Shown piece after piece: positions 1 through 33,500 of a DNA stretch of 64,000 nucleotides. Source of the DNA: Saccostrea cucullata (taxonomy: Eukaryota); NCBI RefSeq assembly GCF_032062105.1, contig NW_026926521.1:1-64000 (forward strand), written 5' to 3'. The position numbers and the translations under genes were made by a program. The notes under the pieces are model-generated. The model saw only the letters and a list, made by a program, of their open reading frames with translations. It had not been told where the DNA came from and searched no databases. Numbering within the stretch: position 1 is the first letter of the stretch; the number at the start of each line of letters is the position of its first letter.

Positions 1-2665
1 TTTTAGAAAAAGTTTTATTGCCTATTTAGTTTTTAAGCGGTTAGCTACCTATCGATTACGGAAACTTCAACAAAGCCTCTACCTAGTATATATGATTTGT
101 TTCTAACACATATAACATATGTTATATAAAATCAAGACTATCAAACAACACAATCGTTCGGTTTTTTAATATTTTTTCCGATTTTGTTTGTCAATGAAAT
201 AAATTTATAATTGTTATATAAAAAAAAGTTTATGTATAGGAGCATTTGGTGTTGAGATTAAATTTCCGTGACATCAGCTGATGGCGATCGGGCCCTGTGA
301 CAAAATTCGAAGTCAGCATGAAGTTTAGCTGATAACATTATCAACGCGTTGGATTTAAACTTTAAGGAGAAATGTATAGCGAGAAATATCATATTTGAAC
401 CCAATGCTACACGAAACCAGCAGGCATTTCCGATTTATGTGTTAAATTGAAGCCTGAATCGAACAGGTGGTCAAAATGGCGTTGGACACCTTGTGTATTT
501 ATATACAATGTATAGAGGGGGGAGAATGTTTCCATATTTGGCTAATTTAGAGACTTACTGATAAGAATCCAGATGCCTGTGATTGATTATAAGACACCCC
601 TCATGAACAATAAATATTTGACAGAATTATGCTACTGGGCACAGGGAGGACGGGTTAATTACTGGCTAAAGGGGTTGAAGGTTATTACCGACTGCAAAAC
701 ACCGGAGAATCTCTCGATCTAGTTTCATTTTCCAAAATATTAAGGCATCCCTTTAATTAACTTAAGTAATACTAGTACGCAAAGAAAGCCTTTATATAAA
801 AATACTGAATACATCTTAAGTTGTACAGTTATGGATTACTTCCATAATGAAACGTTTTATTGAAATTATTTAATAGATGATAAAAGCTTTGTTTCCAGGG
901 ATAAATTCTGTACTCACTCTAATTATTACAAACGATTTTAAAGGATCACATTTTTATTTAAAAAAAAATAATGGGAGCCTGAAAATACTAAAATTAATTT
1001 TTAAAAAATTGGAGAAAAAATTAAATTGGAATTCGGTCCTATTCTAAAAATCAGCCGATATAAAATATGCACAGAAAAAAGAGGCATGAAAAATCTTGAC
1101 GATAAGCACAAATTGAAAATTATATCTAATGAATGATTATATTTGAAAGTTTGCTAAATTCCTATGCAAGGTATAAGTTGTAAAAATACTTTTTAAATTT
1201 AATTTGAATTTGTCCAATTTATTAATTATCATTTTGAGCCTTTGAGAAGAAATAAAAATTTAAATACAGATGCTTACAGACATATTGATAGAAATTCACA
1301 TAATTGTTTTTAGTTAAAAAAATGTATTGCTTGTGCGACATATTGAAGAAAGTGACAATGATACCTAGGTAATTCTTGCAATGGATAATTAAATTGTTTG
1401 TTATAAACTGACTTTTAGTGAACCTTTGAATTTTTAAAATACTAGTATTGATGGATTAAACAACAACTTTCCTTACCACACGTTTTTTGTTGTTTTTTTA
1501 TTCTTTTTTTTCAATATTTCATGAAAATATTTGCCAAATACTCAGTATATATTCATTTATACATATCGTGCAAGACTCTTTTTTAAATAATTGTCATATA
1601 CCATTTATTTAAATTATTCGAACATTTAATTGTATGAAAAGTCAATAATGTACATTTCTTAAAACTTTATTATCTTGTTTGCTTGTCTTTCTTCCTGTGA
1701 GAGAAATAGTTCATAATATTAATAAACAGATGTACTCAGTATCGGTATCAAATTACAGAATGAACAGCGATTGGTCTCAAAAGAAAAACGGATCTTTGAA
1801 AGTTCCGGTGCCTAGGAGAAGTAAGCTTCTCCAATGACAGGTCACACCTGCTGACCGGCAATGAGCCTACGAAACTGAAGCTCTCTGAAATTAATTAATT
1901 CTCTGCTCGTCCATCCGTTTTTCTCAGACTAGCCAGCTAAAGATCTATGTACAGTACTCCAAATCAATTAATCTAAAGAATTTGAATTATCATTTTTTCT
2001 TTTTGAGTTGTTTGCTATAGTAGCCTTTACAGTTACCTAATTTCAGAATCAATAGAGCATGAAAGCCAATTAAATTTGCAACATCAACATAATTTTTTTT
2101 TCGTTCTGAGCACGTTTGGACGCCACCAATGGAGACAATTGGGGAGAAATTTTTGAAATTGAACTTCCTGTCTTTCAAACTAAAAGTCTCAGGTTGATAT
2201 TTTGAAACAAACATTTGTGACATCAGTCTGGAATGTTATTGGTTATACCATTTAGTTAAGTACTACAAAATTTAGTGTGTCTGCTTCTTCGCTGATGACA
2301 TTGGGAAAAGATATGCATGCCTACTTTAATAGCATCATTCAATGCATTTTTTGTTATTGTACACTGTACATATTCGATGAAAGCATGCTAACCGCTTTTC
2401 AGTACTTTGATTTAAAATCTCATATATGTTACGTTTTAGTGCAAAAACGTCACACAATAATTTACGCGCATTAATTTGCAAAATTTGTTCAATTAATAAT
2501 GTTTTTAAGTTTTGTGTGAGTTATTGCATGGTGTGTGAATCACACAGACTTGTCATAGGCATATTTTATGAAGCGCGCTAATAAATATAATTTTATTTTA
2601 CGTAAAAAACTGATTATTTAAACTATTTTGTGTCGAGATCATTATTATATTGTTCGTTGTAACAT

Positions 2666-3387
2666 AGTGTAGATTCCTAATTATACGCGAGGAATTAATT
2701 TCCGCGTAATTTCGCGATAAGCATCGTTCGCAAAAAAAATATTTCTCGTTTTTATTTTTATGGTGCTGAAATCTATGTACATTTTTAAGGAATCACTGTC
2801 TAGTTCGTATAGTATGCCAGGGCATCAACGATAGTGGGAAACATGGGATAATTTGCATAACGGGCGAAGCCCGTTATGCTTAAATTATCCCATGTTTCCC
2901 ACTATCGTTGATGTCCCTGGCATACTATACGAACTAGACAGTGATTCCTTATATTTCCGTTTCACTGTGAAATAAAATTGTATATTTATATTTTTAAAAT
3001 GTTGACATAGATTTAAACTACATGAAGACTCCCTTGCCATTTTCCATAGCCCTCTCCCACTGACGTCAAACACAATTGCAGCCGCACGAGATTTTCATGC
3101 ATATTTGGCATCCTTCGCCTCAGACACAGAGACAGATGCGCACGAGATTTGCATGTATATTAAGCCTCCCCAACTCCTGACCTTTCGACCTGCCTAATTT
3201 ACATTCCGACAGGTTTATCAATAAATTAACTCCGCTAAATTTCAAAGAGTTATCACAGAGACAAAAATAAGAAATGGAAATATTACTTGATCAACCGTCC
3301 ATTCGCAAATTATAATTCTCGCGTTATGAAGTTAAAGAGCCAGTTCGCGGAAAAAAGCACTCGCGAAAAATAAGGAATTTACAGTAG
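2666..3387. mobile_element. TA-flanked MITE (CTGTA...TACAG type) interrupted by a hairpin element
   Basis: Left end tagtgtagattcctaatt (one mismatch to tactgtag); right end aaggaatttacagta; internal ttcgcg/cgcgaa subrepeats as in the MITEs at 31222 and 54301; interrupted at ~2781-3285. Confidence 0.6.
2781..3285 (+). mobile_element. Non-autonomous terminal-hairpin element A (Crypton-like, inferred)
   Basis: Near-perfect palindrome 2786-2951 (arms ~80 bp, apex GCGAAGC), then TATA-tttccgtttc whose inverted copy gaaatggaaa-TA lies at 3271-3282; no coding capacity. Confidence 0.6.
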
Positions 3388-3485
3388 CTAATATGTACGT
3401 AATTTTTCTTAAGGTTTAATTTGTAGGGGTTCAAAACATTAATTCATTCAGACCATAGCAGGCCTAATATTATGCCTATATATCG

Positions 3486-5570
3486 AACAAGAGGCCCAGA
3501 GGCCACAGCGCTCACCTGAGCACATCGGCTAGGAAAAAGCACATATCAGATCAGAACGGAAAGTTTACTGAGGTGATGGTGGGGGGAAAGGGGGCTTGAA
3601 TTTTAACCCCCCCCAGGGGTTCATGATTTGAACTAGAATCTACACTACCTTAGGATGATTCCATATAAATATCACTGATCATGGCTTTGAAGTACTTGAA
3701 AAGAAGATTTTAAATATATTGGTTTCCCAATATATCCCTATGTAAAACTTGGGTCGGCCATTTTGGCCCCACCCTAGCCCAAGGAGTCATGATTTGAACA
3801 AACCTGAATCTACACTATCTGAGGATAATTTCACACGAGTTTTATCTTTCCTGTCTCAATGGTTCTTGAGAAGAAGATTTTTAAAGATTTTTCCTATATC
3901 TTCCTATGTAAAACATGGGTCGGCCATTTCGGCCCCGCCCTAGCCCCGGGGGTCATGATTTGAACAAATTTGAATCTACACTACCTCAGGATGATTCCAC
4001 ATGAGTTTTATATTTCCTGGCCCAGTGGTTCTTGAGAGGAAGATTTTTAAAGATTTTTCCTATATATTCCTTTGTAAAACTTGGGTCGGCCATTGTGGCC
4101 CCACCCTAGCCTGGGGGGTCAAGATTTGAACAAACTTGAGTCTACACTACCTGAGAATGATTCCACATGAGTTTCATCTTTCCTAACCCCGTGGTTCTTG
4201 AGAAATTTTTAAAGATTTTTCCTATATATTCCTATGTAAAACTTGGGTCGGCCATTTTGGCCCCGCCCTAGCCCCAGGGCTCATGATTTGAACAAACTTG
4301 AATTTTCACTACCTAAGAATGATTCCACATGAGTTTCATCTTTCCTGTTCAAGTGGTTCTTGAGAAGAAGATTTTTAAAAATTTTTCCTATATATTCCTA
4401 TGTTAAACTTGGGTTGGCCATTTTGGCCCCACCCTTGCCCCGGGGGTCATCATTTGAACAAACTTGAACCTACACTACCTGAGGATGATTCCACATGAGT
4501 TTCATCTTTTCTGGCCCAGTGGTTCTTGAGAAGAAGAAATTTTTAAAGATTTTTCCTATAAATTCCTATGTAAAACTTGGGTCGGCCATTTTGGCCCCAC
4601 CCTTGCCCCGGGGGTCATGATTTGAACAAACTTGAATCTACACTACCTGAGGATGATTCCACATGATTTTCATCTTTCCTAGCCCAGTGGTTCTTGAGAA
4701 GAAGATTTTTAAAGATTTTTCCTATATACTACTATGTAAAACTTTGATCGGCCATTGTGGCCCCACCCTAGCCTGGGGGGTCAAGATTTGAACAAACTTG
4801 AGTCTACACTACCTGAGAATGATTCCACATGAGTTTCATCTTTCCTAACCCCGTGGTTCTTGAGAAATTTTTAAAGATTTTTCCTATATATTCCTATGTA
4901 AAACTTGGGTCGGCCATTTTGGCCCCGCCCTAGCCCCAGGGCTCATGATTTGAACAAACTTGAATTTTCACTACCTAAGAATGATTCCACATGAGTTTCA
5001 TCTTTCCTGTTCAAGTGGTTCTTGAGAAGAAGATTTTTAAAAATTTTTCCTATATATTCCTATGTTAAACTTGGGTTGGCCATTTTGGCCCCACCCTTGC
5101 CCCGGGGGTCATCATTTGAACAAACTTGAACCTACACTACCTGAGGATGATTCCACATGAGTTTCATCTTTCCTGGCCCAGTGGTTCTTGAGAAGAAGAA
5201 ATTTTTAAAGATTTTTCCTATAAATTCCTATGTAAAACTTGGGTCGGCCATTTTGGCCCCACCCTTGCCCCGGGGGTCATGATTTGAACAAACTTGAATC
5301 TACACTACCTGAGGATGATTCCACATGATTTTCATCTTTCCTAGCCCAGTGGTTCTTGAGAAGAAGATTTTTAAAGATTTTTCCTATATATTCCTATGTA
5401 AAACTTGGGTCGGCCATTGTGGCCCCACCCTTGCCCCGGGGGTTATGACTTGAACAAACTTGAATCTACACTACCTGAGGATGCTTCCACATGAGTTTCA
5501 TCTTTCCTGGCCCAGCGGTTCTGGAGAAGAAGATTTTTTAAAAATGCCATTAATTTTTAACAAATTCATG

Positions 5571-5624
<54 letters not shown>

Positions 5625-5641
5625 TTTCACCTAAGGATACT

Positions 5642-5681
<40 letters not shown>

Positions 5682-5710
5682 GAAGAAGATGAAAATGTAA
5701 AAAGTTTACG

Positions 5711-5758
<48 letters not shown>

Positions 5759-5775
5759 AGCTCAGGTGAGCTAAT
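3486..5775 (+). mobile_element. Non-autonomous Helentron/HINE-type element carrying a satellite array
   Basis: Starts aacaagaggccc; subterminal IR gctcacctgagc (3510-3521) / gctcaggtgagc (5760-5771); terminal hairpin 5742-5772; ACG/GAC microsatellite 5708-5725; architecture matches oyster HINE elements as recalled from the literature. Confidence 0.8.
3615..5545 (+). repeat. ~166-bp satellite, about 11-12 monomers (Cg170/HindIII-like)
   Basis: Marker ttgggtcggccatt (or variant) recurs at ~3749, 3915, 4081, 4243, 4409, 4577, 4743, 4905, 5071, 5239, 5405. Confidence 0.9.
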
Positions 5776-7234
5776 AAAAAGCATTACAGCTGATCAGAAA
5801 CTAGAGGAAATGTGAACACGGAGCTCACTTGCTCCTTCGAACGGTCCCTGCAAATTTCTCTGGGCTATATAACTTTTGTTATTGGGAAACAATAAAAGCT
5901 CATACTTGGTATGCAGTCTCAGCTTGCTTAATTTAATTATCATCCTGCAGAATGTATTAAAATTAACCCTATTATTAGGTTATTATGCGGCAAGTTCAAG
6001 GTGACTGACAGTAAAAATATAAATTCCCCCATGCTTATACATTTACTACTCATTTGACCTTGTATTGGAGTTTATTTATCACCAGAAAATCAAACAAAAT
6101 ACAAAGATTGTTAAACCCCTTGACAAGAGTTGTTACGACCTTGATCCAAGGTTATTCAAGTAGGTTCAAAGTGGCTGGTGGAAAAAATACTGGAAGCTTA
6201 TACTTGGTAAAGATTGCTTTTCATTAAGTTCTGACCCAGGGATAAATAATTAGGCCATTCAATCACATTTAAGTCACAGGTACAAGTATAAAACTCTAGC
6301 CTGGACTCTAACACTGGAATCGAGAATCATCAGATGCTCAGACTTGGTACAAAGACTGCCAACATTCTTTGGATTTGTAATGACCTTAATACACCATCCT
6401 TTCTGTAAGTTCAAGGTCAATTAATGGCAGAAAAGTAAAAAAAAAATCTTCCTGACTTAAACTTTGTAGGGTCATTACAAGATATACAATAAAACTCAGA
6501 AAACAGATAGTGGTAATATCTTTTAATAGACTTTGAATAAAAATAATATTATAAATTGATGAGTCATGAACAGGGATTAATATATAAACATGTATAAACA
6601 CTGTATAAAATTAATATCACAGACAATATTTCAGAAAAAAATTATTCACAAAAAAAACTTCCTATGACCCTTTTTCCCTTGTTTCAACTTAAGTTTAATT
6701 AAAAGTCAATCATTTTCTTGACAGAATATATTTTACCATAGGAACTAAAACCCCTCAGAAGCTTGTATATGTATATAAGGCTTTCTGTAGGCATATCAGT
6801 TAAATATGAGCCATGCAAAACAGCATTAAGTAATGTTCTGGGTTATAATATGGTGTATAATCAGATGTGGTGTCATTGTTTTACAACTCTTGCATAAAGT
6901 CCTGCCAGTTGCATTCTAATGAAATTAGTAATACTTTTTAAAATAAAAATAATCTTAACTTTTCCAAATTATTAAAAAAAAAATATCAGGGTTATACTGT
7001 AAATGATACAGTTATTGTGACCTTTCTCCGTTACTACTAAAAAAAATCTTCAATCCCTTTATCTATTTTCATTCAATAGTCATGACCAAGGTTGTTCAAG
7101 TTTTTTGAAAAGTGGGTCAAATTTCAAGGTCAAAGTCACAGGGACATGCATATTCACATGCATGCAAGTATTTCATAAATACATGTATATAATTGTGAAA
7201 TAAATTAATGAATCTACATAAGAATCAGCCAATA

Positions 7235-10200
7235 TCAGGATTTTTCCTCCATGTGTAAAAGTTCCTCTTTACTATGTCCCTCTGGAATGTCAAGGTCAAA
7301 CACAATAGGTGAATTGGTGGGTTTGTATCTCCTTGTACAGGTTGAAGCATTGATAAAGGTCGTGAACCCATCAGAAGTCATCCCATAACCTACAAAAATA
7401 TCATTGTCATTAAATGTGCAAATCTCATTTTTTTGATAAAGAAGTTCAGAACAACAGGTCTGTTAACATGGTTAAAACTATAAATGGCAGCATGCAGCAG
7501 CCAATGAATATTTCAGAAAAAATAGGCCTATCCTTTAATATAAAGAATCTATATTCACGAATGAGGCAATTTCTGGCTACTAGAATTTCTTACTTTCATG
7601 AATGTGTCCAAACACATGGTACTTTGGTTTGACACGTTTCTGTACTGTATTGAGGAGCTCCACACAGCCTACATTATTGTTACCACCGGTCAGGTCCCCA
7701 TGTCCTGTTAGAATAATTACAGGTGAGTCATTTCATCATAGAGACCAGAAAGGTCCGAAAATACCATTTCTCAGATAAGAAAAACATATATAGGCCTAAT
7801 ATGTATACTGTACATGCCAATTTATGAAATTAATGCAGCTTTAGGGTCTAGCATGTCCTGTTATTTTGACCAGAGGAGAGCTAAGGTGTTTCAAATCTTT
7901 TCACATAATTAAATAATCTATTCACTCAGGATCTTACCACAAGGAGGGGTATGGGTCATTAAAATATCAGTATTTTCTGGTATTTTGTCCCAACATTTCT
8001 TTAATCCTGCTCCCCTACGCGGCTGAAAAGCCATTCCCTTGAAGTGCTTTGGTGACCTGCATATACAGAAACGCAGTCAAGAAATTCTCTTTTTTAAAAG
8101 TGATCCAAAGGTATTAATAGAAAATTAGCATGATATAAACCATTTTGTGTTCAAAACTATTAATTTTGCATACCTGTAAGACTGTGTTGGTTGCTTCAGG
8201 TTACATGTATCCCATCTTGAGACCCCCCCCCCCCCCCATTACAAGACATTAACTAAAATGTTTAAATTCTGTTTGTATGCACTGGGATTGAAATGAGCTC
8301 AATCATTGCTCATGTATAATGTAATAATGGTGTTTGTCAACTTACTGATAATTGAGCGAGCATATTTTATACATATACCAGTTGCAACATTTAAATATTA
8401 TTTGTTTACTACAAAGGATTGGTATATATACAGGCAGAGGGGAATTCTACACAATCAGCAAGCACAAATCTAGCACTTCAAGAGAACAGCTTTTAGTTGG
8501 TCTGATATTTTATATGTTAAGGAATCCAAAGTGCAATGAGACTCCATAGTCTGATGGTCACGCTGTTGTGTGATAATCTGTGCCAAACCATGATGGTTAA
8601 AAACACCAAAGTCTGATGATGCAGAAAACAATAAATGTTTACAACCGTTATAGGACTACAGCACAAAAATGCAATGCCAAGGTCCCATTGTATAAAATAA
8701 ATGCAATGAATATTAACTGCGAAGACTAACTCTCATCTTTTGAATAGACGCTACAGTCAAAAATATGTATCAATTTTAACTTGAATATCTTGGGTGAGTG
8801 CTGGACTAACCCAATTCAGTTGAATAGTCTGTGAGGACTAACACTTAATCTCTCAGAGGGGTTCAAAGTAACACATTATCAGTCCAAAAGTGTTCAAGGA
8901 CTAATCTTAACTAAGGGTAGTTTCTCTGGTTGGTGCAACCAATTAGCAAAATCAGTAAAATTGTATGAATAGGACAATTGCAGAACTGATGGCTTTTGAA
9001 TGCAGGACAATGGCGTCAAATTATAGTGATGTCATAAATGTTAAAATTATAGTGATGTCATAAATGTTGATTATTTTTTGGCGTTTCAGACCATTGCACT
9101 TAAGCATGTCGCTTCTTGGTGGAAGCCAGCCATCAGATTTTGGCATCCGTCAGAACAGCATGCAATTGGGATTTGGCGCAGACTATTGCACTTTGGCATC
9201 ATATCGCACTTTGGAGTCTTACATTACATGTACAAAGAAAGTTACAAAGAGGTCTTACCAACTGGGGGTCCATGTGTTATGAGGATATCAGTGTCAGCTG
9301 GGATTTTCTGCCATTTCTCTAACAGTTCCTTCCCTCTATTCACATTGAAACCCCAGTTACAAAAGACAGGTTGCCTGCAAGCGAGTTAATATCACACAAT
9401 TTTTCTTTTTTTGTCTGAATCTGAGATACATGTGCAAGTTATCAATTAATTTAAAAAAAAACTATTTTAAATGAGTGCTTGCTGACCGTATACAATTCTT
9501 TATATTTTATTTTGAACTCGCTTGTAAAATTTAATTGCATATTGAATACTTTCGATCACTTTTTTTTTTTAGAGAGAGAGCTTTATTTTTGCATAAATAC
9601 ACGAGCATGTTGACTGCTTGCAAAAATTACTTTCTCACATTTAAGTAAAGATTATATATGTATATACCCGGTACAACAAAGACCATACCTCGCGAAAAAT
9701 TTTTGTCTCACTTACAAATATTAAATAATTTTCTTGTGAAAAATATGTTGTCATGAATATATGCAGTATTCTTCTGAAAATCTTAAAAGATATTAATTTT
9801 TTAGCAATTATAGAAATAAATGTTTATGGTGAAAAAAAAATGACTATGACACTATGACTTACCAGGGTGCACCATAGACCTTGATCCCACAAATACTGAC
9901 TGAAGAATCTAGGAGATAGATGGCATTTGTTAACATTTTGCTGACAGATTTAAGTCCCCTGGCTTTAAGGTAAGACTCTATCTCAGATTTTCGCAATCCA
10001 AATGACAACAGAGTTGAATCACTGAGCTCTTCATCCAAAGTTAAATCATGGTTTCCAGCTACAAGGATCTTTAGTTGGTATGGCAGAGAACCTGTAGTAT
10101 ATTTAAATAACAATATGGATAATTATTACTCATAATAGTTTCAAACAATAACATTAAAATGGCATCATATAAAATGTAATTTTATTTACATGTACTCCAG

Positions 10201-10245
10201 TGCATTTCTAGTGTTAAAATCCTCATCTTTATAAAAACAGACACC

Positions 10246-10288
<43 letters not shown>

Positions 10289-12505
10289 CTCATACGTGTT
10301 GGTGATACAGGCCGTTGGATAAACTTGTGCTTTATCAACGGGTAGATGCTTTATCAATAGCACTTCCGGTTTTGACACGATCCCTCGCTTCAAGATTTTA
10401 TTTTATTGAAACTTTTATTTGTGAAAATTGTTGCCCTTATAAAATGAATGTTAAAGAGTAGTTATATCGTAAAAAGCAAGAAAAAGACTGGTATATGTCA
10501 AAGAAGTGTCTTATTTTATCAAGGAACCCGTTGGCTATTTGAAGACAGATGTTAACACCCCCCCCCCCCCTTAAATCGTTTTCGGAGAAAGTAAAGCCTA
10601 CCAGTTAACTTGTTGTTATGAGACTCCTTTGACATCTTTAACAATGCTTTCTTATATTATACTACGTATGCCTACCTAGTAATCTAGGTGTAACTTACCA
10701 TGGATCAGCAAACAATCTAGACAAAGTCTAGGCCCCTAGCCTTGCCTAGCACGATTTGTACTGTCATCGTAAAAAGAGTTGATTTTCACGATCCCCATAG
10801 TCCTAACAACTTTCAGTCAGAAGTTCGTTTGATGTACAGCTCCAACAATTGTCACATGATGTTTTCAAAGACACAGATATCAACGGTGCTACGTCATCAA
10901 GTTATACGTCATCAATTTGATTTTGGCAGTCATTCATGTAGTTTCGCAGGGGAAGTCTCAAAGTTTTGTTAAAATTAAAGTCGTATGAGATAAATAGAAC
11001 ATCTATAATTGTGTGATTTGATATTGGCTTTATCCAACTCGTTGAAATGGTGTATATTCGCTCGGCAAGCCTCGCGAATATATACACCATTTCAACTCGT
11101 TGGATAAAGCCAATATCTATATACCTGATGTAATTAAAAAAAAATCATACAGAACTGGTTTAATATTACATAAAGTAAAAGTTTATGAAATAAGAAGTTT
11201 TTCCCTTAATGAAGGTTAATATAATACATGTATTTATCTCATACGTGTGGGTGATACAGGCCGTTGGATAAACTTGTGCTTTATCAACAGGTAGATGCTT
11301 TATCAATAGCACTTCCGGTTTTGACACGATCCCTCGCTTCAAAATTTTATTTGAAACTTTTATTTGTGATCCCTATTATTGCCCTAATAAAATGAATGAT
11401 AAAGAGCGATAACATCGTTAAAAGCAAGAAAAAGACTCGTATATGTCAAAGAAGTGTCTCATTTTATCAAGGAACCTGTATTGGCTACTTGAAGACAGAT
11501 GTTACCCCCCCCCCCCTTTAAATCGTTTTCGGAAAAAGTAAAGCCTACCAGTTAAGTTGTTGTTATAAGATTCCTTTAACATCTTCAATAATGCTGTCTT
11601 ATATTATACTACGTATGCCTACCTAGTAACGTAGGTGTAACTTACCATGGATCAACAATGAATCTACCAGTAGGCCCCTAGCCTTGCCTATCACGTTTTG
11701 TACTGCCATCGTCCAAACGAGTTCATTTTCATGATCCAATGGTCCTTACAACTGTCAGTCAGAAGTCCGTTCGATGTAAAGCTCCAGCAATTGTCACATA
11801 ATGTTTTCAAAGACGCAGATAGCAAAAATTCTAAATTTTGAACAAGATCTACTTTCTTTCGAGGGATGTCAACATCAACGGTGCTACGTCATCAAGTTGT
11901 ACGTCATCAATTTGAATTTAGCAATCATTCATGTAGTTTCGCAGGGGAAGTCTCAAAGTTTTGTTAAAATGAAAGTCGTATGAGATAAATAGAACATCTA
12001 TAATTGTGTAATTTGATAGTGGCTTCATCCAACTCGTTGAAATGGTGTATATTCACTGGGCAAGCCTTTTGAATATATACACCATTTCAATTCGTTGGAT
12101 AAAGCCAATATCAAATCACACAATATAGATATCCTCTATATATAAATATAGCACTTCTATTTTCTCAGACACATCCAATTTGAAATACAAAGTTACATCC
12201 CTTTTTACAAAATGATCAATACCTAAGTAGGAGTTAAATTTCTCTATCTCTGTAAGATTTCCTCTCATTGTGAAGTCCCCAGCATGAAGAAGCACGTCTC
12301 CTGCAGGCATACGTAACCCTGACCTCTCAATCTTCCCGTGGGTGTCAGAGATACAGACAAACCTGATCTTGTCGGGGGTGACAGGGGTGACCGGGTCTGG
12401 GTGGGGACATCGGATGTGCTGCTGGTGGATCCGAATTCTCTCCCAGGCCTTTGTTGGATTTGCTGTGTCTTTGTCAACCGTTATTTCTTCACTGCCTGAC
12501 ATCAT
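7235..12505 (-). CDS. MPPED1: Metallophosphoesterase domain-containing protein (MPPED1/2 co-ortholog), 5 coding exons, ~297 aa
   Basis: Exons 12505-12223, 10091-9863, 9374-9259, 7704-7594, 7389-7235 join in phase at GT-AG sites; motifs ISDTH, HAGDFT, AGNHD, THGPP, FGHIHE, FINAS. Confidence 0.92.
10284..11117 (-). mobile_element. Terminal-hairpin element B, copy 1 (hairpin end truncated)
   Basis: Starts tttatctcatacg, inverted copy cgtatgagataaa at ~10982-10994, then hairpin ~11020-11117; highly similar to 11233-12133. Confidence 0.7.
11233..12133 (-). mobile_element. Terminal-hairpin element B, copy 2
   Basis: Same architecture; hairpin ~11996-12130; carries an extra ~47-bp segment near 11820-11868 absent from copy 1. 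Confidence 0.7.
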
Positions 12506-12769
12506 TTAGATTCCTATAAACATAGAGTGTAAAATCAGATATATGTATATCTATTATAGTACTACATGGAATTTAATAATAAAGAAATCCTTTAAAGATT
12601 AGTAAAAAATTAAAGCAAATGTTTTACATGACTTTAGCTATATTACCTAGAGATACTGTGAGCACTATGGTTTTGGAAACCCGAAATAAGTGTCAGATCA
12701 TAAGTGAAACAGGAGGAGCACAATATGTAATAAAATTACCCATACACGTAATCGGGAGAATGCAACTGA

Positions 12770-12987
12770 CTAGACTGGGATTCAAACCCGAGCTCCAGTC
12801 AGGTGCTCTACCAACTGAGCTACCGCTTATCAAATCAGTCTGACTACCCCATTCCTCCCTCCTGAGGGAGGAATGGGGGTAGTCAGAGTGATTTGATCAG
12901 TTTAAGGACGGAGGAATGGGGTAGTCAGACTGATTTGATAACCGGTAGCTCAGTTGGTAGAGCACCTGACTGGAGCTTGGGTTTGAC
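12770..12987. repeat. Inverted pair of tRNA-derived SINE head fragments
   Basis: ggtagctcagttggtagagcacctgact (A-box-like) at ~12943 and its reverse complement at ~12797-12824; B-box-like gggtttga; third partial copy at 13156-13180; no complete cloverleaf. Confidence 0.55.
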
Positions 12988-22378: not shown

Positions 22379-24379
22379 TTAAAGAAAGATTAGCCACAAA
22401 TTAATCTGCTAAAATTGTGATTGCTGAACATCACATCATAATTTTTTTATTGAACAAAACCGACACATTCCTGCAAAAATTACACACATTTACACCAGTA
22501 AAAACAACAATTATACAATTCTATATACCAATTCAGTGATTGTGCATGTGATAATTAAAGCATGAAATTTTGAACTAGCAGATCCAACATTTCCAGGGCG
22601 GATCAAAGATTTGTCATCATTGGTAACAATATAACTATATCTACTATAACAGTAACAATAGCAAAACGGTGGGAAGACAATGAAAAACTTAACAAAGCTT
22701 GTTCTCTATATACCACTCTACTAACACTATAGCTGCTGAAGCAACCTCTTCAATTTCCTATATAGCTAAATAAACTACAGAAAATACTTTGTAGAACAGT
22801 AAATTAAATTTCATACCTTTGATATTTGTGCAATTTTATTGTTTTTGAAGCTAAACCAGTATTCAGAGCCATTATATAACCAGCTACATTTTTACTAACC
22901 TACCAGTTATGACATCAATAACGTTTTATGTTGTATCTCAAAATACAAATCAATAGTAAATATGGAACTGAGAATTCAGAGGAAAATTCCACTAAAGATT
23001 AAAATTAAATTTGGAAAATATGATTGAAATCCACAAAAATAAAATACTCCAATATTATCACTATTAGCAACCACTCAATAACATAAGACATGTAGCACCA
23101 ATGGGATAAAGACACAAAATGCAACAACCTTTGAAGAAAGTAGCATCTATATATGACACATATATAAATCATAAACCTTTGAAGAATTAAACTATAATTA
23201 TGGCAAACTCAATACAGGGGTATTAAATACAGAAAAAAGTTTTGTGGAACTAGCCTTATGGAAAACACAATTAAAAAAACATACATGTAAGTCTAAAATA
23301 AATTGCATAATCTTGATTGACTATACAATATGAACGACACAATTTATATTGCAGTGTCATAAAATGAACACCCCTCTCCTACTATAGAAATATAAATAGG
23401 TATCTATAATTGTTACTTATAGAAAGGACTACATTTTAGGTATTGCAGAAGCACATGCATGCTTGTAAGCTTTGTGTATAAGTAGTGTGTGCATTGTCAC
23501 TTTTGAAATCAACTTAAATGACTGATTTCTCTATCATTGACACTAGGTTTAAAACATTATAAAAGAGGACAAAAATACTAGTAAAACATACAAATCAAAA
23601 ACTAGTATTTTGAAGTTAATCTCATTAAAAATGAACACAAAGGCTAAAAAAAGGAAAACAAATGGAAGCAACTGGCAGTTGAGTAAAATATATTAGAATG
23701 TGATTAAGACAAAAATCTTAGATAAAAATAAATAATAAGCATACAAATTAAAAGTAAAATACATGTATATTCATATAAAATATTAATACATTTTCCCCAC
23801 AAATACATGTATATTCAAGTTACAATTGTAGTTCAGAAAATGTGTAAATATATTACATCTAGTTTTATATTCTTTTTAGTGCCTTTGTTGGAAAGAATCT
23901 CTAGTAAAATCAACAACATGACTAAATGAGTTGTACATAGCTATTTAAATACATGTACATGTATTCAATGTAAAAGCCCTAAATCAATGCTGTGCTACCT
24001 TTCAAACAGTAAATTTCTGCTAAATATTATACTTGTTTATAAATATGATATATAAACACTGCATATATTAATAAATGTGAAAAATGCCAATTCTGACTAG
24101 ACAACTAAATATTGAATAAATAACAAGCCATTATTGTGGTATGCAAGATTTCTTGAAAAGGGACTTTTATCTATAAACAATATACATGTACAGTCACATA
24201 CAGAAAAGAAAAAAAAGCACCAAAACAAAATCCTAAACTGAAAAGGAGGCCAATGTTAATACAATGTAGATAAACCTCCAAATAACAATAAAGTTCCGTC
24301 ATTATTTGTACACTGCAAATGAATAGAGCAAAATAGCTGCATAAACAATGTATGGTTCTTTGTCGATGTTGCTGTAGAT

Positions 24380-27300
24380 TTAATGGCTCCCTAGAAACAA
24401 GGGATCTACTGAAGCCAGCTTAGCAGACAGAAAGGCGTGGATGCAGTAAAGCAGGGTGTGGAGACTGGAGCACTGGATCTCCTACAAACACAACCAACAA
24501 ACAGTCAATATAAAATAGAATAATAATGTAATATGATGCTTCTGTCCCATTTCTGTTGGGATAAAGGTTAGTCAAAACTCCGGCCCTTTTGGCTAGTTCT
24601 CAAAAAATTATTTTGTACCTGTGTCAAAATTAATTAACCAATCAAATTATGCAGTGTGTTTTATATGTTTCAAGCTTCTCTGTCTCTAAGATGTGTGGCT
24701 TGTTGTCAGACAAGATTCAAATTATCTACTTAAAAAAAAATACTTTGAAAAATTATTTAGGTTTAAAGAATAATTATTCATTATGACAATCTGTGATTGA
24801 ACATTGTTCTGATTTTGTCCTTACCCTGGTTTCTGTATTGTTGGAATTCTCCGTGCTGTGGAAGTGCAGCCTCAGTTTGGATCTGTTATCATCTGAGGAA
24901 CCTTTGAGTTGGGAGAATTTATAAGTCCACATGTAGCTCTATGAAAAAAGAAAAAAATGGCCTTTTTTTCTTTGCTTCACATGACACTAAATCAAGAGAT
25001 GTTTGTAAAAAATATTGGATTTCATTTAAATATGTGCAACCTCTACACAGAAAATGAATGGAAACTGATGGTGGACCAACAGGCACCCATATAGACTGAC
25101 AGCAGCAAAGCAATACGCCCTCCCTTCTTTGGAGGGGGGGGGCATGGTTATTAGGGTTTTTTTCTGGGGAATTAATCATCTTTATACATACCTTTAAAGT
25201 GTTGTCATACAGAGAAAATCCAGACTCGAGATCCAGGGTTAATCCAGACAGCTGTCCCCTCCAGGTACAACCAAAGGTTTTACTCTACAATGAAATATCA
25301 ACATGTAACAAAAATCTCTTTTATATGCTAGTTATACTGGTGTGATTGTGTTTACCTTCATGCTTGTTATACTGGTGTGGTTATTTACCTTCATGCTAGT
25401 TATACTGGTGTTGTTTTCCCTTCATGCTTGTTATACTGGTGTGGTTATTTACCTTCATACTTGTTATACTGGTGTGGTTGTGCTTTCCTTCATGCTTGTT
25501 ATACTGGTGTGGCTGTGTTTACCTTTATGCTTGTTATACTGGTGTGGCTGTGTTTACCTTTATGCTTGTTATACTGGTGTGGCTGTGTTTACCTTCATGC
25601 TTGTTATACTGGTGTGGTTGTGCTTACCTTCATGCTTGTTATACTGGTGTGGTTGTGCTTACCTTCATGCTTGTTATACTGGTGTGGTTGTGCTTACCTT
25701 CATGCTTGTTATACTGGTGTGGTTATATACCTTCATGCTTGTTATACAGTGTACTGGTTATTTACCTTCATGATTGTTATACTGGTGTGGTTATTTAAGA
25801 AATAAACAACGTTATTTAGTGAACATGGCGTTATGAATAGCAATTGCTCTGCTGGCATATTCCATGATGCGCGCTAGCGCATCATGGAAAATATGCCAGC
25901 AGAGCTATTACTATTCATTACGCCATGTTCACTAAATAATCGTTGTTTATTACTTATATTTGCATTCTTTGATGTTGACAAGAATATCAGAGGAAATCCT
26001 GACTTACATAAGGACGCAGCTTCTTCTGTCTTCAGTAAAGAAAACCATATGGCTTTAAAATCAATACACCTGATCAATACTCCTTTTCTCTAATAAATCA
26101 CAATTTATAAAGTATTTCCCTCTCAAACACAGTTATCTGGATACAAGCAGCGCCGTCATCACATTCTCTTAATTTTTGTTTTGATGCAGTCGTGACGTCA
26201 TCAATCAACGTTATTGAAATCCTCTGACAAAAATCAATAATTTAACACTATGATAAAGATGAGAATGCTTTTATTATTATTATTACTCCAGTATGCTTTT
26301 CTGTGATTTTTTTTGGGTACTTTTTCTATTTATTTTTTCTTGAAATAGATATAGATCTACTATAGTTAAAGAAATTTTCTTTTCTGAATGTTATTACCCA
26401 AGTTTGAAGAGTTATCGTTCTTTGTACAAGTATGCATGATACGAAAAAATAAAAATATGGAGTTCTATTTAATTTTTAAAAAGTTTTATTTTACAATTAA
26501 ATACATTTACCAAAATTAAATTTTTAAATATATCAAACAGCAATTTCAAATTGTTCTGAATTCCTTTTTTTCCAAAAAATATTATTAAAAACTTATATTT
26601 AGTCCTTTTACGAAACATTTCATATATATACTTCTCAACACGGTAATTAAGTAGTAGAGCTTGTTCTACACGAGTGAGATAGAGCACTTGCACTCATAGT
26701 GGAGGCAGTTGCGTCTATAGTCATATGAACGCAGTTGAGGGCTACATGTTCATAGTGGAAGAGAGCAGTGGATATGCAAATATTTACATTTATGCTTGTT
26801 ACACTGGTGAGGTTATATTACCTTCATGCTTGTTATACTGGTGTGGTTGTGCTTACCTTCATGCTTGTTATACTGGTGTGGTTGTGCTTACCTTCATGCT
26901 TGTTATACTGGTGTGGTTGTGCTTACCTTCATGCTTGTTATACTGGTGTGGTTATATTACCTTCATGCTTGTTATACCAGATTGGCTGTGTTTACCTTCA
27001 TGCTAGTTATGCTGGTGTGGTTGTGCTTACCTTCATGCTTGTTATACTGGTGTGGTTATATTACTTTAATGCTTGTTATACTGGTTTGGCTGTGTTTACT
27101 TTCATGCTTTTTATACTGGTGTGGTTCTTTACCTTCATGCTTGTTATACTGATGTGGTTTTTATACCTTCATGCTTGTTAGAGTTGGGTATTGCGAGTGA
27201 AAACCATATTGCGATATATTGCAATATTTATGTTGAATATTGCAATATACTGCGATATATTGTAGATGAATTATCATTAATAAATTTGTGCAGAAAGTTT

Positions 27301-27499
27301 AAAATGCTGTCAATTTCAAAGACTATTTGAATTTATCTATAAATTTTAAAGGGGGGGGGGGGATAAGACATTAATCGCACACAAAATTATAATAACTTTT
27401 AATCGAAAACCAGGTAAAAAATTAAAACAAAATGTATTCATTTGATGTATTTTCAAATTGAAAAAAAAGTTTATGCATAGTATATTCTTTATACGTTTC

Positions 27500-27533
<34 letters not shown>

Positions 27534-30500
27534 GGTGTTTTATTGAAATAACATAAAATGGAACTTAATGATTAAAACAATACATATATACTATATAGAA
27601 ATTTTATGTGGTCACAAAATAAAATTAAAGCCAGAAAGAAATTGTGACCTAATTTCGGACGTTTGGTGTTTTAGTCTGACCCGACCTAATTTCACATTAT
27701 GACATACGATCAGGAACGGCATTGGCCTATTTCTATTGTTTTAATATACATGCTACTGGTATAGCATGAAGGTGTTTAAAATGGCATGAAACTTGTTAAA
27801 GAATAATAAAAAACACTGTATCAAGTGAAAACATGGATGGCCATTTACTTGTAATATGTATCTTGAACTTAACATTCATCGTCGATCGTGTAGATTCCAT
27901 GAGATTTTGAGAACCACAGTACACATGGTAAACACCCTGTAGAAATGTTTTATGTATTTTCCTTTTTAATAATTTTATTTAAAAGTCTTTTTATTAATTA
28001 TTTATTTTATTTTAAAGTAAGAAATTTAAAATTGACAGTGAATGAAAAGCTTCCCCCCCTCTCTCTCTTTTCTCTCTATCTGCCTCTGAAAGCTGACGAA
28101 GTATTTTTTTTTTACTAGATTGAAAAGGCCTGGGGAAGTTACAAGTATTATTTCAGCAGTTTCTACAATACAGGAGTTTTTTATATATTTTATAAATATC
28201 GTGAAATACCGGTATCTGACTTTCATATCGCGATATATTATCGTGATGGATAATACCGCAATATACCGATATACCGGTAATATTGCACAGCCCTAATGCT
28301 TGTTATACTGGTGTAGTTGTTTTTCCCTTCATGCTTGTTATACTGGTGTAGTTGTTTTTCCCTTCATGCTTGTTATACAGAGGTGTAGTTATTTGCCTTT
28401 ATGCTTGTTATACTGGTGTGGTTGTATTACCTTCATGCTTGTTATACTGGTGTGGTTATTATACCTTCATGCTTGTTATACTGGTTTGGTTGTGCTTACC
28501 TTCATGCTTGTTATACTGGTGTGGTTGTGCTTACCTTTATGCTTGTTATACTGGTGTGGTTGTGCTTACCTTCATGCTTGTTATACTGGTGTGGTTGTGC
28601 TTACCTTCATGCTTGTTATACTAGTGTGGTTATATTACCTTCATGCTTGTTATACTGGTGTGGTTGTTCTTACCTTCATGCTTGTTATACTGGTGTGGTT
28701 GTGCTTACCTTCATGCTTGTTATACTGGTATGGTTATTATACCTTCATGCTTGTTATACTGGTGTGGTTGTGCTTACCTTCATGCTTGTTATACTGGTAT
28801 GGTTGTGCTTACCTTCATGCTTGTTATACTGGTGTGGTTGTGCTTAACCTTCATGCTTGTTATACTGGTGTGGTTGTGCTTACCTTCATGCTTGTTATAC
28901 TGGTGTGGTTGTGCTTACCTTCATGCTTGTTATACTGGTATGGTTATTATACCTTCATGCTTGTTATACTGGTGTGGTTGTGCTTACCTTCATGCTTGTT
29001 ATACTGGTGTGGTTGGTTTTGTACCAGGCTTTCTCCAGTTGGAGGAGATCAGAGCGGCTCTCGGTACTCAGGTAGAACTTTTCACCTGTCCCACAGTGTA
29101 TGGTGCAACAATGCTGGCGATCATCCAGAAGTTCAACATCCTGACAAAAGATACATTATTTTTTATGTAAACACAGCTGTAAAAAGAATACCATTCACCT
29201 AAACAGTTTAATTCTGGTATCTTCAACACAGGTACATTGCAGCTTCTTTATCATGGATATGTATCAAAAATTTCAAATATTTTGAAATTTTTCTTTGCTC
29301 CATCAAGTTTGAAAAGATTTGACTGTTTTGGCCTCAATCAAAGCCTTTTTCAAGAATCCATGGTTTGTGAAATTACTTGCACACTATAAAACACGCATAA
29401 ATATAAGTTTTTAAAATATAAACTAACTGAAGAAAATTTACTTTCTTCAACTTAAATACCTTGAGAACCTTAAACATGCACTCATAAACTTTGAACACAG
29501 TGTCACAGCGAACCCAGTCTCTTGTCTGCATCTAAAAATAACAAAAAAGAATTCAATTTACATCTTTTACAGAAGAGCTGTATCTTTGTGCTATAGGTAA
29601 CAACTCCCAATCATAAAAAAATTCATATTAATAGAGTATTCAATGATGAATATCATATGCAATATCAGAAACTATAAAATATATTGAAAGGACTTACTGG
29701 TGGAACATCAAACAAGCAAATTTCAGCTCCTTTTAGACATAGAAATTTTGGTTTCCAGGCTTGAAAGTGCCGCATGGGAGAGACTCTTTCTTGGGTCCAT
29801 GTCATGTGAACAACCTGGTAAAAAATAAATATTTTTCAATACATATTCTGTAAGATAGATTACACGTTTTAAAAGAAATTGTGACTGATGTTAGCACAAC
29901 TTACTTGATCTTCTGGGATCAACAGTCTGTTGCTCATTTTTATCTGAAATGAAAATGTTCAATTCATATATTTTTCATCTGACACAGTGAAAACCAGCAC
30001 TGTATCATACAACACAAGCTAAAATTCAACACACCGCTCAAAGCATCTGAATGAACAGTAATTTATAATTCACATATCAACATTACAGTAGCAAATACAC
30101 AATATTGTCATACCATATGAGTGAGCAATGCTGAAATATTATTGGTTATTGCTCTTATCCAATCAGCCAATGATCTACTGTCTTCACATTGTACAACTCC
30201 TGTTGAAGCAGAGTTCACACCAACCACCTCAAAGGCATTTGTTCTGAAAGATTCAACATATATTACAGTGTACAGTCAAATACAACCAAACATATTCTAT
30301 ATCAAAGCAATTTACAGGTATAATAAAACACTTATGCCCCCTCCTCCAAATAATTGGAAGTCTAAGGGGCACAACTCTGGTCAAAATAGCCTGATCGTAC
30401 CCAAAATAAAACTTGACCTAGATATTCTCATGAAAAATTCTTTGCAGAGGTTGCACATATTGAAATAAAATGTGGTATACAGATTTATTATAAAAATATC

Positions 30501-33500
30501 TAGGTCAAGTTTTGTTATGGGTACGATCAGGCCATTTCTGACAGAGTTATGCACTTTCGACTTTAAAAAATTCCAATTATTTGGGGGAGGGGGGCAGTGT
30601 TTATAAATATCTCTCGTTAACATTCAGTATTGTATTCAGAATTATTTCATCAAAGACATCCCAGTGACCTGAATACAGTACTTCATCTCACCTGAGTTTG
30701 TCTGTTCCGGGGATGAATCTGGACAGGTAGGCAAACAGTAAGGGGATAGTAACATAGACCACCCACTGTCGCTCGAGGTCAGGGATGGACGGAGACTGGG
30801 AACTCTTTATACAAAGAACACAAATGAGAAAGTGAATTCTTAACTTACAATATAAAAGACAATCTGATATAATTTTTACCTTTTGCATATGTAAAAAAAG
30901 AAAACTTACAGGTTTTTGGGCAATCATTCATGTTTTTTTTTTTTTTTTAGAGAGAATTAATTAATACATGCCTTATAGCCTGTTATGCATACATTAGTAT
31001 TCATTCATAAGAGTCCATACAGCAAAAAAACTTTAAAATTTTTCTAAATTCTATATGTTTGATACTTACTCCTGGAGAACTTGCACTGCTCTGTGACTCT
31101 AAAAATGAAAGAAAAATGATAATCATATCTATACACATGCAATAATAAATTAAAATTTCATACCACGGTAAGTTTCAAAATTAACAAGCATACACATGTA
31201 CATGCTGCAAAAAATGTAATACTGTAGATCACTAAATTTTCGCGACACCATATTTTCACGAGATAGTCCTTGACTCTTGATTAGCGAAACAAAATTTTCA
31301 CGAATTGTGGTTATTGCTCTATATAATCTTAAGGAATACTATTATACGCGAGAATTAAATTTTCGCGAGCACACTGTCTCACGTAATTATGCGCAAATGA
31401 AGTTCTCGCGAATAAAAAGTGATTTACAGTATACAGTGTGGTCTGCAAATATTGATTTTTTTTCTTCAATTTCCTATAGACAATATATTATTGTTGAAGA
31501 CCTTGTCTCAGGAAAAAATTATAATACTTACCCCTTTTCAGGAAAAGTGCAGCTGGTTTAAAGTATCTGACTGTCAAGATAACAGTCTGTCCTGCTAATT
31601 TCAGTGTCTCAATGACTGCATCATGTTCCATTTTATCACATTCTATGTCATTTATCTAAAACATTAGATAATCCATTATGGATTAAAATCTTTAATGAAT
31701 TCAAGACACTGGGAAACAAACCAAAGCAATTGTTCCTATGTATTTTTAGTTGGTACATGTAAATACACACTGAAGACAGTAATCATGAATCCAGATACAG
31801 TATTCAAATCTGCAAAGATTGTTTATTCCTGACAATGAAAAGCAATTTCTTGTAGCTAATTAAAAGCCTACCTTTAGAATAGCATCTCCAATCAGTAGTT
31901 TGCCAGAATTTGATGCTGGAAGATTGGGGGGCATTTTTGATATGAATACAGGAAGGCCACAATCTGCACCCCCCTTAAGACCGAGTCCTAGCCCCCCGGA
32001 GTCATCTCTCACCAGACACACCTCACGAACCTGTTGAAATTCTCATCATTCAGTACATTGAAATAAGCGTCCATATAAACTTGATATCAGCTGGATTTGG
32101 GGAGTTAACTCTTGGTCCAAAACTCAATGTTTGACTTAAAAGCAAGTTCTAGAAACACTACCTATGCTGACTTAAAAGCAGATCAATGGCAAATTTCTCC
32201 AAAATAATCTGAACAAAACAACCATGCAGCTAAAAGTAAATTGATTTATATGAAAGCATCTATGGTATTATAGACTTAAAATTGTAATTTGATATATGTA
32301 GGAGTAAATATGAAAATGCTTTGGAATTATTATAATGATATACAAGTGGTGCTAATGGCCAAATAGTGTTAGGAACTCCACATAAATTACCTCATAACAA
32401 TTAAAGAAATAGAAAACTGTCTTTGTGTATTTGTCACTGTAGTGTTCTGTACATTTACCTGGTTAAGCATCTCATCGTTCCCATTGCTGTCAGTTGACAC
32501 GATTTCCTCCCTCAGAACACTCAGTGTGTCCGTTGTTAAGACAAGCTTGGCTGTTCTGGGTTTTCCTATGGAGTCAAGGATGGTTACTAAACCAGTCTTC
32601 TCCTGGAAAATAAATCATATATTTAGAAGAGTTTCATTTTAATGCAGATTAAAAATTCACTTTTAAATTGTTTAATGTGAAATTTTTGGCTTTTAAAAAT
32701 TTTTTTTTGGGGGGGGGAGGGGGGTATATCTTACTTTTTGTCTTTGAATTTGAAATTTGTACAAAAGATTCAATTTGCTCAGAGACAAAAATGGGCAATG
32801 ATTTACTGAGCATCATATTGAGTGAATAACAAAGAAAGGGGGAGGGGCCTAAGTTTACTTTTATTGTATGAAAAGTATACATGGCAGAAATGTTGTACAA
32901 TAAATAAAAAAGATATATATATTAACATTTATAATGATTACAGAGATTTCTTTCTTGATGCATGTATTTGGTACTTTAGTTTTGAGAATAGATAGTTTTT
33001 GATGGACCTAAATTTAGCAAAAGTTACCTCCTGTTGGTCGCCATATTGGGGGTCGACTCGGTGAGTTTTCCTCTTTGTCTTACCAAGTTTAAGAAAATAT
33101 AGCAGAAATATTTGGTGGAAAATCTTTATTAAATAATTTTTTTTTAATAAAGGAGGCTTCCAAAAATTTACATACTTCAGAAAAATAATTATTCCTAATT
33201 CAAAATAGCAAATATAAAAATTTAAAATTGGTTGAACAATGAAGGAATATAAACATTTGGACCTCCAGTTTGGCGGCCAATGGGAGGTAACTTTTGCTAA
33301 ATTTAGGTCCATCGAAAACTATCTATGGTTAAATAACATATACATGTAATAAAAATTTTGTTACATTATCAAAATCATTTCAAATGGTATATTGGTTTGA
33401 AAGTTTGACTTAGGTTTGTTCTCAGTTTATGATGTTAAAGCCTGTTTTTATACACATGTAACCCTTCAAAGTTAAAATCTATCACTTCATAAAAATTTGA

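Follow-up and report, generated by a model that had tools for sequence, protein, structure and literature searches.

What kind of mobile element begins with a long hairpin, and what could move it? The question is raised by the first 64,000 nucleotides of contig NW_026926521.1 of Saccostrea cucullata (forward strand; RefSeq assembly GCF_032062105.1; this whole stretch is called the window below), where three elements, A, B (copies B1 and B2) and C, follow one hairpin design. The answer that we favour, with moderate confidence, is that all three are non-autonomous transposons of the CryptonA type, moved by a DUF3504 tyrosine recombinase (YR) that would act on a folded single strand. Membership in this group, taken alone, is very probable for B and probable for A and C. 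It is because the same hairpin design flanks a Crypton recombinase gene in coral-like DNA that the elements are likely to be Crypton derivatives. The case is built on direct observations, namely the anatomy of the elements, the mobility and ends of A, a strand bias within the hairpins, a rule followed by the ends, and a link to DUF3504 genes in another animal.

Long terminal hairpins were verified in A, B and C by folding and by arm-to-arm alignment. The layout is common to all of them and consists of a hairpin at one end only, an inverted repeat (IR) adjoining it, and the inverse of this repeat as the far end of the element (15 bp in B and 9–13 nt in A and C). Such pairing had been claimed in an earlier note on this DNA, drawn up from the sequence alone, and it is confirmed for all three. 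Recognisable coding content is absent from A, B and C, and so is a classical end-to-end terminal inverted repeat (TIR); in its place stands the asymmetric combination of IR and hairpin, which also occurs around DUF3504 genes. The inner IR of A is short, with TATTTCC pairing with 3276-3283, and is supported by a population end at 3283; in C, TATTTGCAT pairs with 26774-26783. An automatic search mispicked or missed these partners of 9–13 nt, and both were read directly. The ends of B are TAGAGG/TTCTATTT, and B2 has ATATAGAGGATAT and ATAAAYAGAACAT at its ends in common with a coral hairpin family, family 13. A and C share ends of the form TTAAG...CTTATATTT...AAATAT, so that the earlier description of the elements as unrelated in sequence does not hold for these two.

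The stems are also imperfect in the manner described earlier. Both A and C have a 2-nt bulge about 11 bp from the apex on the inner arm (in C, two unpaired A within the run 25888-91), as well as a single extra base further along the same arm (near 2914 in A; a T near 25940 in C). In B1 and B2, an unpaired AT occurs 10–14 bp from the AA loop, on the outer arm. By a rough estimate with a window chosen post hoc, the chance of three 2-nt indels falling in one 4-column window is ~0.004. Full arms of ~65–80 bp were once proposed for all three, but the B1 stem has only ~48 bp, its outer arm being partly deleted, and the tip of B2 is decayed. Two features had escaped the earlier note, namely mini-hairpin tips in register with the stem in A and C, and two tandem GA.GA mismatches on the hairpin-first strand of B (in B1 on the minus strand, seen as TC.TC on the plus strand at 11062-63/11072-73 and 11039-40/11097-98).

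Table 1. Location and structure of the hairpin elements and their parts (positions in the window).
Feature	Position	Strand	Description
Element A	2785..3283	+	499 bp, non-coding; hairpin-first strand +; from contig loose ends and end rule
A terminal hairpin	2786..2951	+	~82-bp stem, with 11-bp stem beneath GAA loop
A tip	2864..2870	+	GCGAAGC DNA mini-hairpin, in register with stem
A 2-nt bulge	2880..2881	+	TT, 11 bp from loop, inner (3') arm; first letter T or A among copies
A inner inverted repeat	2952..2962	+	adjoins hairpin; 13-nt match to far end, score 21
A far-end inverted repeat	3271..3283	+	ends TAT; from IR match, contig ends and end rule
Element B1	10282..11123	-	~840 bp; far end in (TA)n tract; hairpin-first strand -; right boundary by eye
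B1 hairpin	11020..11117	-	2-nt AA loop; 2-nt bulge near 11080-81; from folding and alignment
B1 inner inverted repeat	10982-10996	-	15 bp; partner 10282-10296
Element B2	11231..12140	-	~910 bp, 85% identical to B1; right boundary in TA run, +/-4 nt
B2 hairpin	11992..12140	-	tip decayed; 2-nt bulge as in B1
B2 inner inverted repeat	11977..11991	-	15 bp; partner 11231-11245
Element C	25795..26783	+	989 bp, non-coding, within 35-bp satellite
C terminal hairpin	25796..25956	+	11-bp stem beneath GCTA loop; from folding and alignment
C tip	25871-78	+	mini-hairpin GCGCTAGC, in register, hairpin-first strand
C far-end inverted repeat	26774..26783	+	partner directly 3' of hairpin; 9-10 nt, read directly

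The mobility of A is evident from contigs of four sequencing runs (three samples) placed on positions 2640-3420, which numbered 8464, 5455, 130 and 5682. In run X1, the flanks break before 2784/2785 in 133 and 60 contigs and behind 3283/3284 in 61 and 73 contigs, and loose ends occur at the same positions in runs X6 and X2. Since unrelated flanks start at fixed points, A is a high-copy insertion of 499 bp; the thousands of contigs in several runs, with their sharp ends, show that it is not an assembly artefact. The left flank reads TAT in 133 contigs and TAA in 60, and TTT in the copy of this window, and T follows the far end in 73 of the 134 ends listed. This copy is nested in a MITE (miniature inverted-repeat transposable element) of ~230 bp at 2664-3386, and empty copies of that MITE occur in three runs.

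Relatives of the hairpins were found well beyond the window. The CgiSat40 repeat of C. gigas carries the label DNA/Crypton (PMC8268682, cited here from excerpts, as are PMC3212892, PMC13465315, PMC13037366, PMC3089051, PMC5027507, PMC11417382 and PMC5148889). Folded by eye over the 400 of its 673 nt that the excerpt gives, it starts with a long hairpin that has a GAA tip and contains GA.GA mismatches as well as a 1-nt bulge. A pattern derived from this tip marked long hairpins in five of seven metagenome loci and in one of four genome loci, L187, which belongs to the bin G001 described next. A survey then comprised 59 GCGNAGC-tipped hairpins in 19 families, 53 of them from a bin designated G001 and six from metagenome contigs. 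This 12-Mb bin is filed among prokaryote genomes; the stretches of it that were read are coral-like animal DNA with introns, Cryptons and retrotransposon open reading frames. Its recombinase homologues carry coral names, and a profile search returned 38 DUF3504-type matches. The hairpin elements often nest or abut, and family 2 stands at the same site inside family 0 in L212, L213 and L228.

The link to recombinase genes rests on the position of the hairpins. At 8 of the 19 distinct DUF3504 places with at least 400 bp of downstream sequence, a GA-type hairpin lies 0.3–1.2 kb downstream, with GA on the antisense strand. In a control, any GA-type hairpin was present in 2 of 20 stretches of 3.5 kb, from which 0.3 would be expected, and the association has a p of 5e-10 by rate. 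L201 and L203 have the full order, in which hairpin and IR are followed by a gene pointing at the hairpin and by a far IR of 23 or 31 bp. At L201:2450-2570, a perfect palindrome with 59-bp arms and no GC tip interrupts a DUF3504 gene.

For B, the left end agrees with that of coral family 13 at 13 of 13 nt and the inner site at 12 of 13, and family 13 stands ~500 bp after a C-terminal YR piece in C14 (E = 7e-8), a single contig that breaks off within the gene. Left ends of the TATAG type are also found at the YR-bearing C338, C33, C131 and C687. B has its termini in common with a DUF3504-encoding element. A and C agree with six coral families in anatomy, tip and end rule; the candidate YR fragment among these, in L187, reaches only E = 0.18, and L242 is ambiguous. 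Tip-type matches in G001 numbered five for A, none for B and six for C, the last at control level.

Among prokaryotes and viruses, exact A motifs were absent from viral contigs and from metagenomes and gave four unrelated matches in bacterial genomes, and A had no match among phage records. The B tip motif matched 120 loci in viruses and 10 in bacteria, where long hairpins were absent throughout, and the C tip occurred at four viral loci, none of them long. A gapped pattern of the anatomy returned 39 bacterial loci with only one palindrome, of the repetitive extragenic palindromic (REP)-like kind, the CgiSat40-type tip was absent from viral contigs, and the A tip combined with GA gave seven short prokaryotic hairpins. 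The loci of the B tip motif (L005-L134) include short hairpins of marine phages, often beside gene starts, and REP-like bacterial palindromes, which probably reflect convergence on one stable DNA fold.

The ends themselves obey a rule. Among the 31 hairpins of the six coral families, 19 of the 25 left ends that are readable have TA[AT][AT]T and then AACAA. At the inner site AACAA is preceded by TAA alone, in all of the 26 cases that can be read. The 20 far ends that were found all close with TAA, which is partly a product of how the search was constructed, and the next base in these 20 copies is T in 11, A in five, G in two and C in two. Where elements stand in end-to-end tandem (L204, L226), the far end is followed by TT and then by the left end. 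C fits the same scheme, its left side reading TAT-TT-AAG and its far end TAT; TAT thus occurs twice, at 25792-94 and 26781-83, and when it is counted once the empty site agrees with a satellite unit in 25 of 27 nt. The rule for A and C is therefore a TAW target (W being A or T) followed by 2 extra nt that have no counterpart in the inner site, and it follows that joined ends would match the inner site with 2 nt added. A second type, without the 2-nt surplus, is formed by B and its coral relatives. The short homology at both ends of A and C amounts to 3 nt, compared with the 4–6 nt published for Cryptons. A TTAA duplication of the Kolobok or piggyBac kind was considered and is ruled out by the right flank, TTAC in both A and C.

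The hairpins also distinguish one strand from the other. GCGNAGC/GCGNNAGC mini-hairpins are unusually stable in DNA (PMC13037366). They have only 11 occurrences on both strands of the window, and the tips of A (GCGAAGC) and C (GCGCTAGC) both lie on the hairpin-first strand, in register with their stems. In the survey, GA.GA outnumbers TC.TC by 76 to 0 on the GNA strand beyond column 10. A 1.8-kb contig, L195, holds three copies of one hairpin, the longest of which has seven evenly spaced GA.GA over 120 bp. By analogy with CTXphi and attC, the strand bias tentatively suggests recombination on a folded single strand.

Such recombination might proceed as follows. Were the ends of an element joined into a circle, the far-end IR would come to adjoin the start of the hairpin, and one site would then be present twice, in inverse orientation and ~170 nt apart. 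The hairpin, on the strand with the mini-hairpin and GA pairs, could then zip on into the two IRs and create one duplex recombinase site; in the A/C type, the joined arm of this site would leave 2 nt unpaired at the crossover. For a single strand exchange with a TAW target, ~3 nt of homology might be enough, and replication or repair would resolve the product in the manner of CTXphi attP(+) and attC. Selection of the folding strand would fall to the tip motif and the G.A pairs. To our knowledge, recombination of single strands by a tyrosine recombinase is known only from bacteria. Tentatively, and with less confidence than for the three elements themselves, the proposal may be extended to animal CryptonA at large, which abound in animals between corals and oysters and gave rise to the human ZMYM/QRICH1 genes and Eulor5/6 repeats. 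These could move as single-stranded circles with a folded hairpin of ~170 nt as attachment site, recognised less by sequence than by its mini-hairpin tip, sheared G.A pairs and bulges. The analysis supplies exact ends, the TAW rule, a predicted circle junction, the strand predicted to fold and, in L201 and L203, a largely intact coral-like recombinase gene with its ends, and with these the mechanism becomes directly testable. It also provides a structural signature by which many unlabelled palindromic repeats of invertebrate genomes could be classified.

Several observations weigh against this reading. The survey covers one coral-like bin and five contigs and was assembled by tip patterns. Of the 19 DUF3504 places, 11 have no hairpin as defined (one tip-deleted, one on the sense strand, nine with none), a lenient test by locus (8/19 vs 2/20) gives a p of only 0.026, and the far IR was not found for three to four of the eight hairpin-bearing places. 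No YR-bearing element with ends of the A/C type is proven among the coral families. A search of the window, A, B and C included, with a 28-sequence profile and 120 proteins gave no significant match to a recombinase, although the lack of an own gene is expected for non-autonomous copies. An autonomous oyster partner was not seen either, in material that included no whole oyster genome. The motifs are divided among the elements, as GA.GA pairs are missing from A and C, and both the GNA tip and the 2-nt junction surplus from B. DNA energies from ViennaRNA differ by 0–2 kcal/mol between the strands, in a model that probably lacks these special motifs. Finally, neither a circle nor a single strand was observed in the data, which consist of contigs; the end-to-end tandems of coral DNA bear on a circle indirectly, as do the strand bias and the inner copy of the junction on exchange of a folded strand.

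The bulges invite explanations of their own. One, which we consider rather unlikely, is that they are frozen accidents of family founders and that the agreement at ~11 bp is due to chance, which would concern the bulge only and not the Crypton assignment. In the survey, where the tip patterns fix the first ~8 columns (13 for seven hairpins), a near-tip asymmetry of 1–2 nt occurs 13–20 bp from the loop in 10 of the 19 families (in 8/8, 4/6, 5/5, 3/3 and three times 2/2 copies, plus three single copies); there is none at 11–12 bp and none at all in the other nine families. Most of these asymmetries are on the 5' arm, whereas those of A and C are on the 3' arm. This variation in position (11–20 bp overall), size and arm is what founder accidents would leave, and any founder indel is inherited by the copies of its family. 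A fixed 2-nt bulge at 11 bp as a common signal is likewise not supported. Against pure accident, however, 10 of 18 family-level indels fall in columns 9–22, which make up 25% of the columns (p = 0.006, with the window set post hoc), and diverged copies of A keep the length difference while the bulge letters change. At the first of these letters, A makes up 66% of depth in X1 and 14% in X6. A 2-nt deletion at the bulge was absent from the 12 indels listed (six more were not listed), and the mirror-image insertion on the outer arm accounts, in the three large runs, for ~0.1% of depth, and in the small one for 7%, from a single contig. Among 17 listed contigs spanning both arms, five have 21–25 substitutions and no gap, and the other 12 are gapped, at places not listed; contigs with one arm only are not assignable to either arm, which limits the test. 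The earlier view that the imperfections are programmed and not the result of decay is supported by these gap-free diverged copies, the rare mirror bulge, the varying letters and the 7 of 11 multi-copy families in which the asymmetry is common to most or all copies. The bulge near the tip is probably an accessory mark particular to each family rather than the core signal. A different idea takes literally a comparison made in the earlier note, with flip-flop hairpin telomeres; the hairpins would then be the ends of a linear replicon or of a rolling-hairpin element of the parvovirus, poxvirus or protelomerase type. The imperfect palindromes and the opposite arm of the bulge in B would suit it, and an order of hairpin, D and D' recalls a linearised double-D inverted terminal repeat. 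It is now largely refuted and retains very little probability: in multi-copy families the body lies on the 3' side of the GNA strand in 44 of 51 copies and on the 5' side in none, so that no flip-flop was found. Moreover, the mirror bulge of A is rare, no stack of loose ends appears at its inner arm among the rows listed, and the hairpin is at one end only.

Two further explanations concern the mechanism. The elements could be Crypton derivatives whose recombinase acts on ordinary duplex ends (the Goodwin model), with the hairpin in another role, for example as a priming site or origin for copying of the circle, and its imperfections mainly as protection of the long palindrome against deletion or host nucleases. 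All the evidence for Crypton membership applies equally here, mini-hairpins occur at phage single-strand origins and promoters (PMC13037366), and CryptonF-1_cRei excises cleanly yet gains copies (PMC9977147), which calls for a copying step. We nevertheless consider it unlikely, as it offers no reason for the agreement of the inner site with the end junction as far as the crossover, seen at all 26 readable sites, protection alone needs no strand bias of 76 to 0, and the stem of A is almost perfect. Quite improbable is that A and C, and with still less likelihood B, are non-autonomous HLE2-reverse or Helentron elements mobilised by a Rep-helicase of the HUH class, the left TIR being preceded by a 5' stem-loop of unusual length. 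The order of parts is that of FoHeli3-5 and HLE2-reverse, including a stem-loop upstream of the left TIR and short TIRs, the sites are T-rich (PMC11417382, PMC5148889), strand-specific hairpins would suit rolling-circle enzymes, and oysters are rich in Helentrons (PMC8268682). In FoHeli, however, the 3' IR lies 20–40 bp inside the end, whereas here the IR is the end; both ends have TAW homology; and the genes found inside this anatomy are of the DUF3504 kind. Insertion between T and T without duplicated bases, as in Helentrons, is not seen either, the far end being followed by T in just 11 of 20 copies from coral DNA and in 73 of the 134 ends of A that are listed. A match to Helitron_like_N (PF14214) was absent from G001, a weak point given that the control had none as well.

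The surroundings of the elements are AT-rich, nearly gene-free and filled with satellites. B1 and B2 stand 110 bp apart in one intron, which makes this a spot of repeated insertion; the exons of the host gene, at 12116-12505 on the minus strand and ~10000-10100, presumably resemble a metallophosphoesterase and have no Pfam match. The 35-bp satellite that C interrupts extends over 25325-29015, and a 33-bp satellite occupies 58400-59680. A 166-bp satellite at 3486-5700 comprises 11.5 copies, and the end that precedes it has an inverted copy at 52766-52799; we take this end to resemble an oyster Helentron/HINE terminus, and the satellite with its flanks to resemble the oyster Cg170/Helentron repeat. 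A fourth long hairpin at 12782-12986 has 82-nt arms of 96% identity, a tip with an internal duplication and a tRNA-like arm sequence, with a partial copy at 13150-13182; it has no GNA tip and no ARAGORN or Rfam match. Three elements with long TIRs around a spacer, at 20255-20788, 30337-30593 and 32988-33326, are ordinary and MITE-like, and a DDE_3 transposase fragment lies at 56345-56923 (E = 8.5e-6). Rfam and tRNA scans of the window returned nothing.

Among known systems, CryptonA and CryptonV are the natural comparison. Their gene-bearing relatives encode a DUF3504 and phage-integrase gene, they have many non-autonomous derivatives, and they show short homology at both ends (PMC3212892, PMC13465315). 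Human Eulor5/6 are CryptonA relics (PMC5753468). Some families target microsatellites, as CryptonV does (PMC8869645), and the position of B in a (TA)n tract fits this habit; CgiSat40 has a hairpin of the same kind. In contrast, the excerpts of Kojima and Jurka (2011; PMC3212892) and of a 2026 paper on Glomhopper (PMC13465315) describe animal Cryptons as having no terminal repeats and assume a double-stranded circle, whereas the elements here have a hairpin with 65–85 bp arms, an asymmetric IR of 9–31 bp, strand-biased motifs and 3-nt TAW homology, and A, B and C encode nothing. The published absence of terminal repeats thus appears to be incomplete. We found no account of hairpin ends for animal Cryptons in the literature searched, and the hairpin-and-IR structure is likely an undescribed variant of Crypton termini; Repbase and Dfam records, which lie outside that search, probably contain such families and may describe these ends. 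The mechanism of Crypton transposition has been called undemonstrated (PMC13565253), and an active CryptonF both excises and multiplies (PMC9977147).

HLE2-reverse elements and Helentrons have the order stem-loop, TIR, body and TIR together with T-rich insertion sites (PMC11417382, PMC5148889), and the elements described here differ in their much longer stem, the far IR at the very end, the TAW homology and their tyrosine-recombinase relatives. Integron attC sites resemble them in that structure is kept as sequence diverges, and in that unpaired bases on one arm and a purine skew select one strand (PMC5027507). This likeness, raised in the earlier note, is a better lead than flip-flop, but it is partial: RYYYAAC/GTTRRRY boxes are absent from A, B and C (the ends of A and C being TTAAG/CTTATATTT), and the extrahelical bases of attC are fixed beside the crossover in a bacterial system, whereas the bulge of these eukaryotic elements varies in position and lies 55–70 bp away. 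The attP(+) site of CTXphi likewise consists of two inverted sites ~90–170 nt apart, which form a forked single-strand hairpin of ~150 nt, in which central regions of unequal length leave bases unpaired at the crossover, and undergo one exchange by XerC (PMC3089051). CTXphi differs in being a bacterial single-stranded DNA phage that uses host XerCD at a specific dif site, the use of a single strand here being inferred. It is nonetheless possible, if short of probable, that animal CryptonA represent the eukaryotic counterpart of CTXphi and integron recombination, in which structure is read more than sequence.

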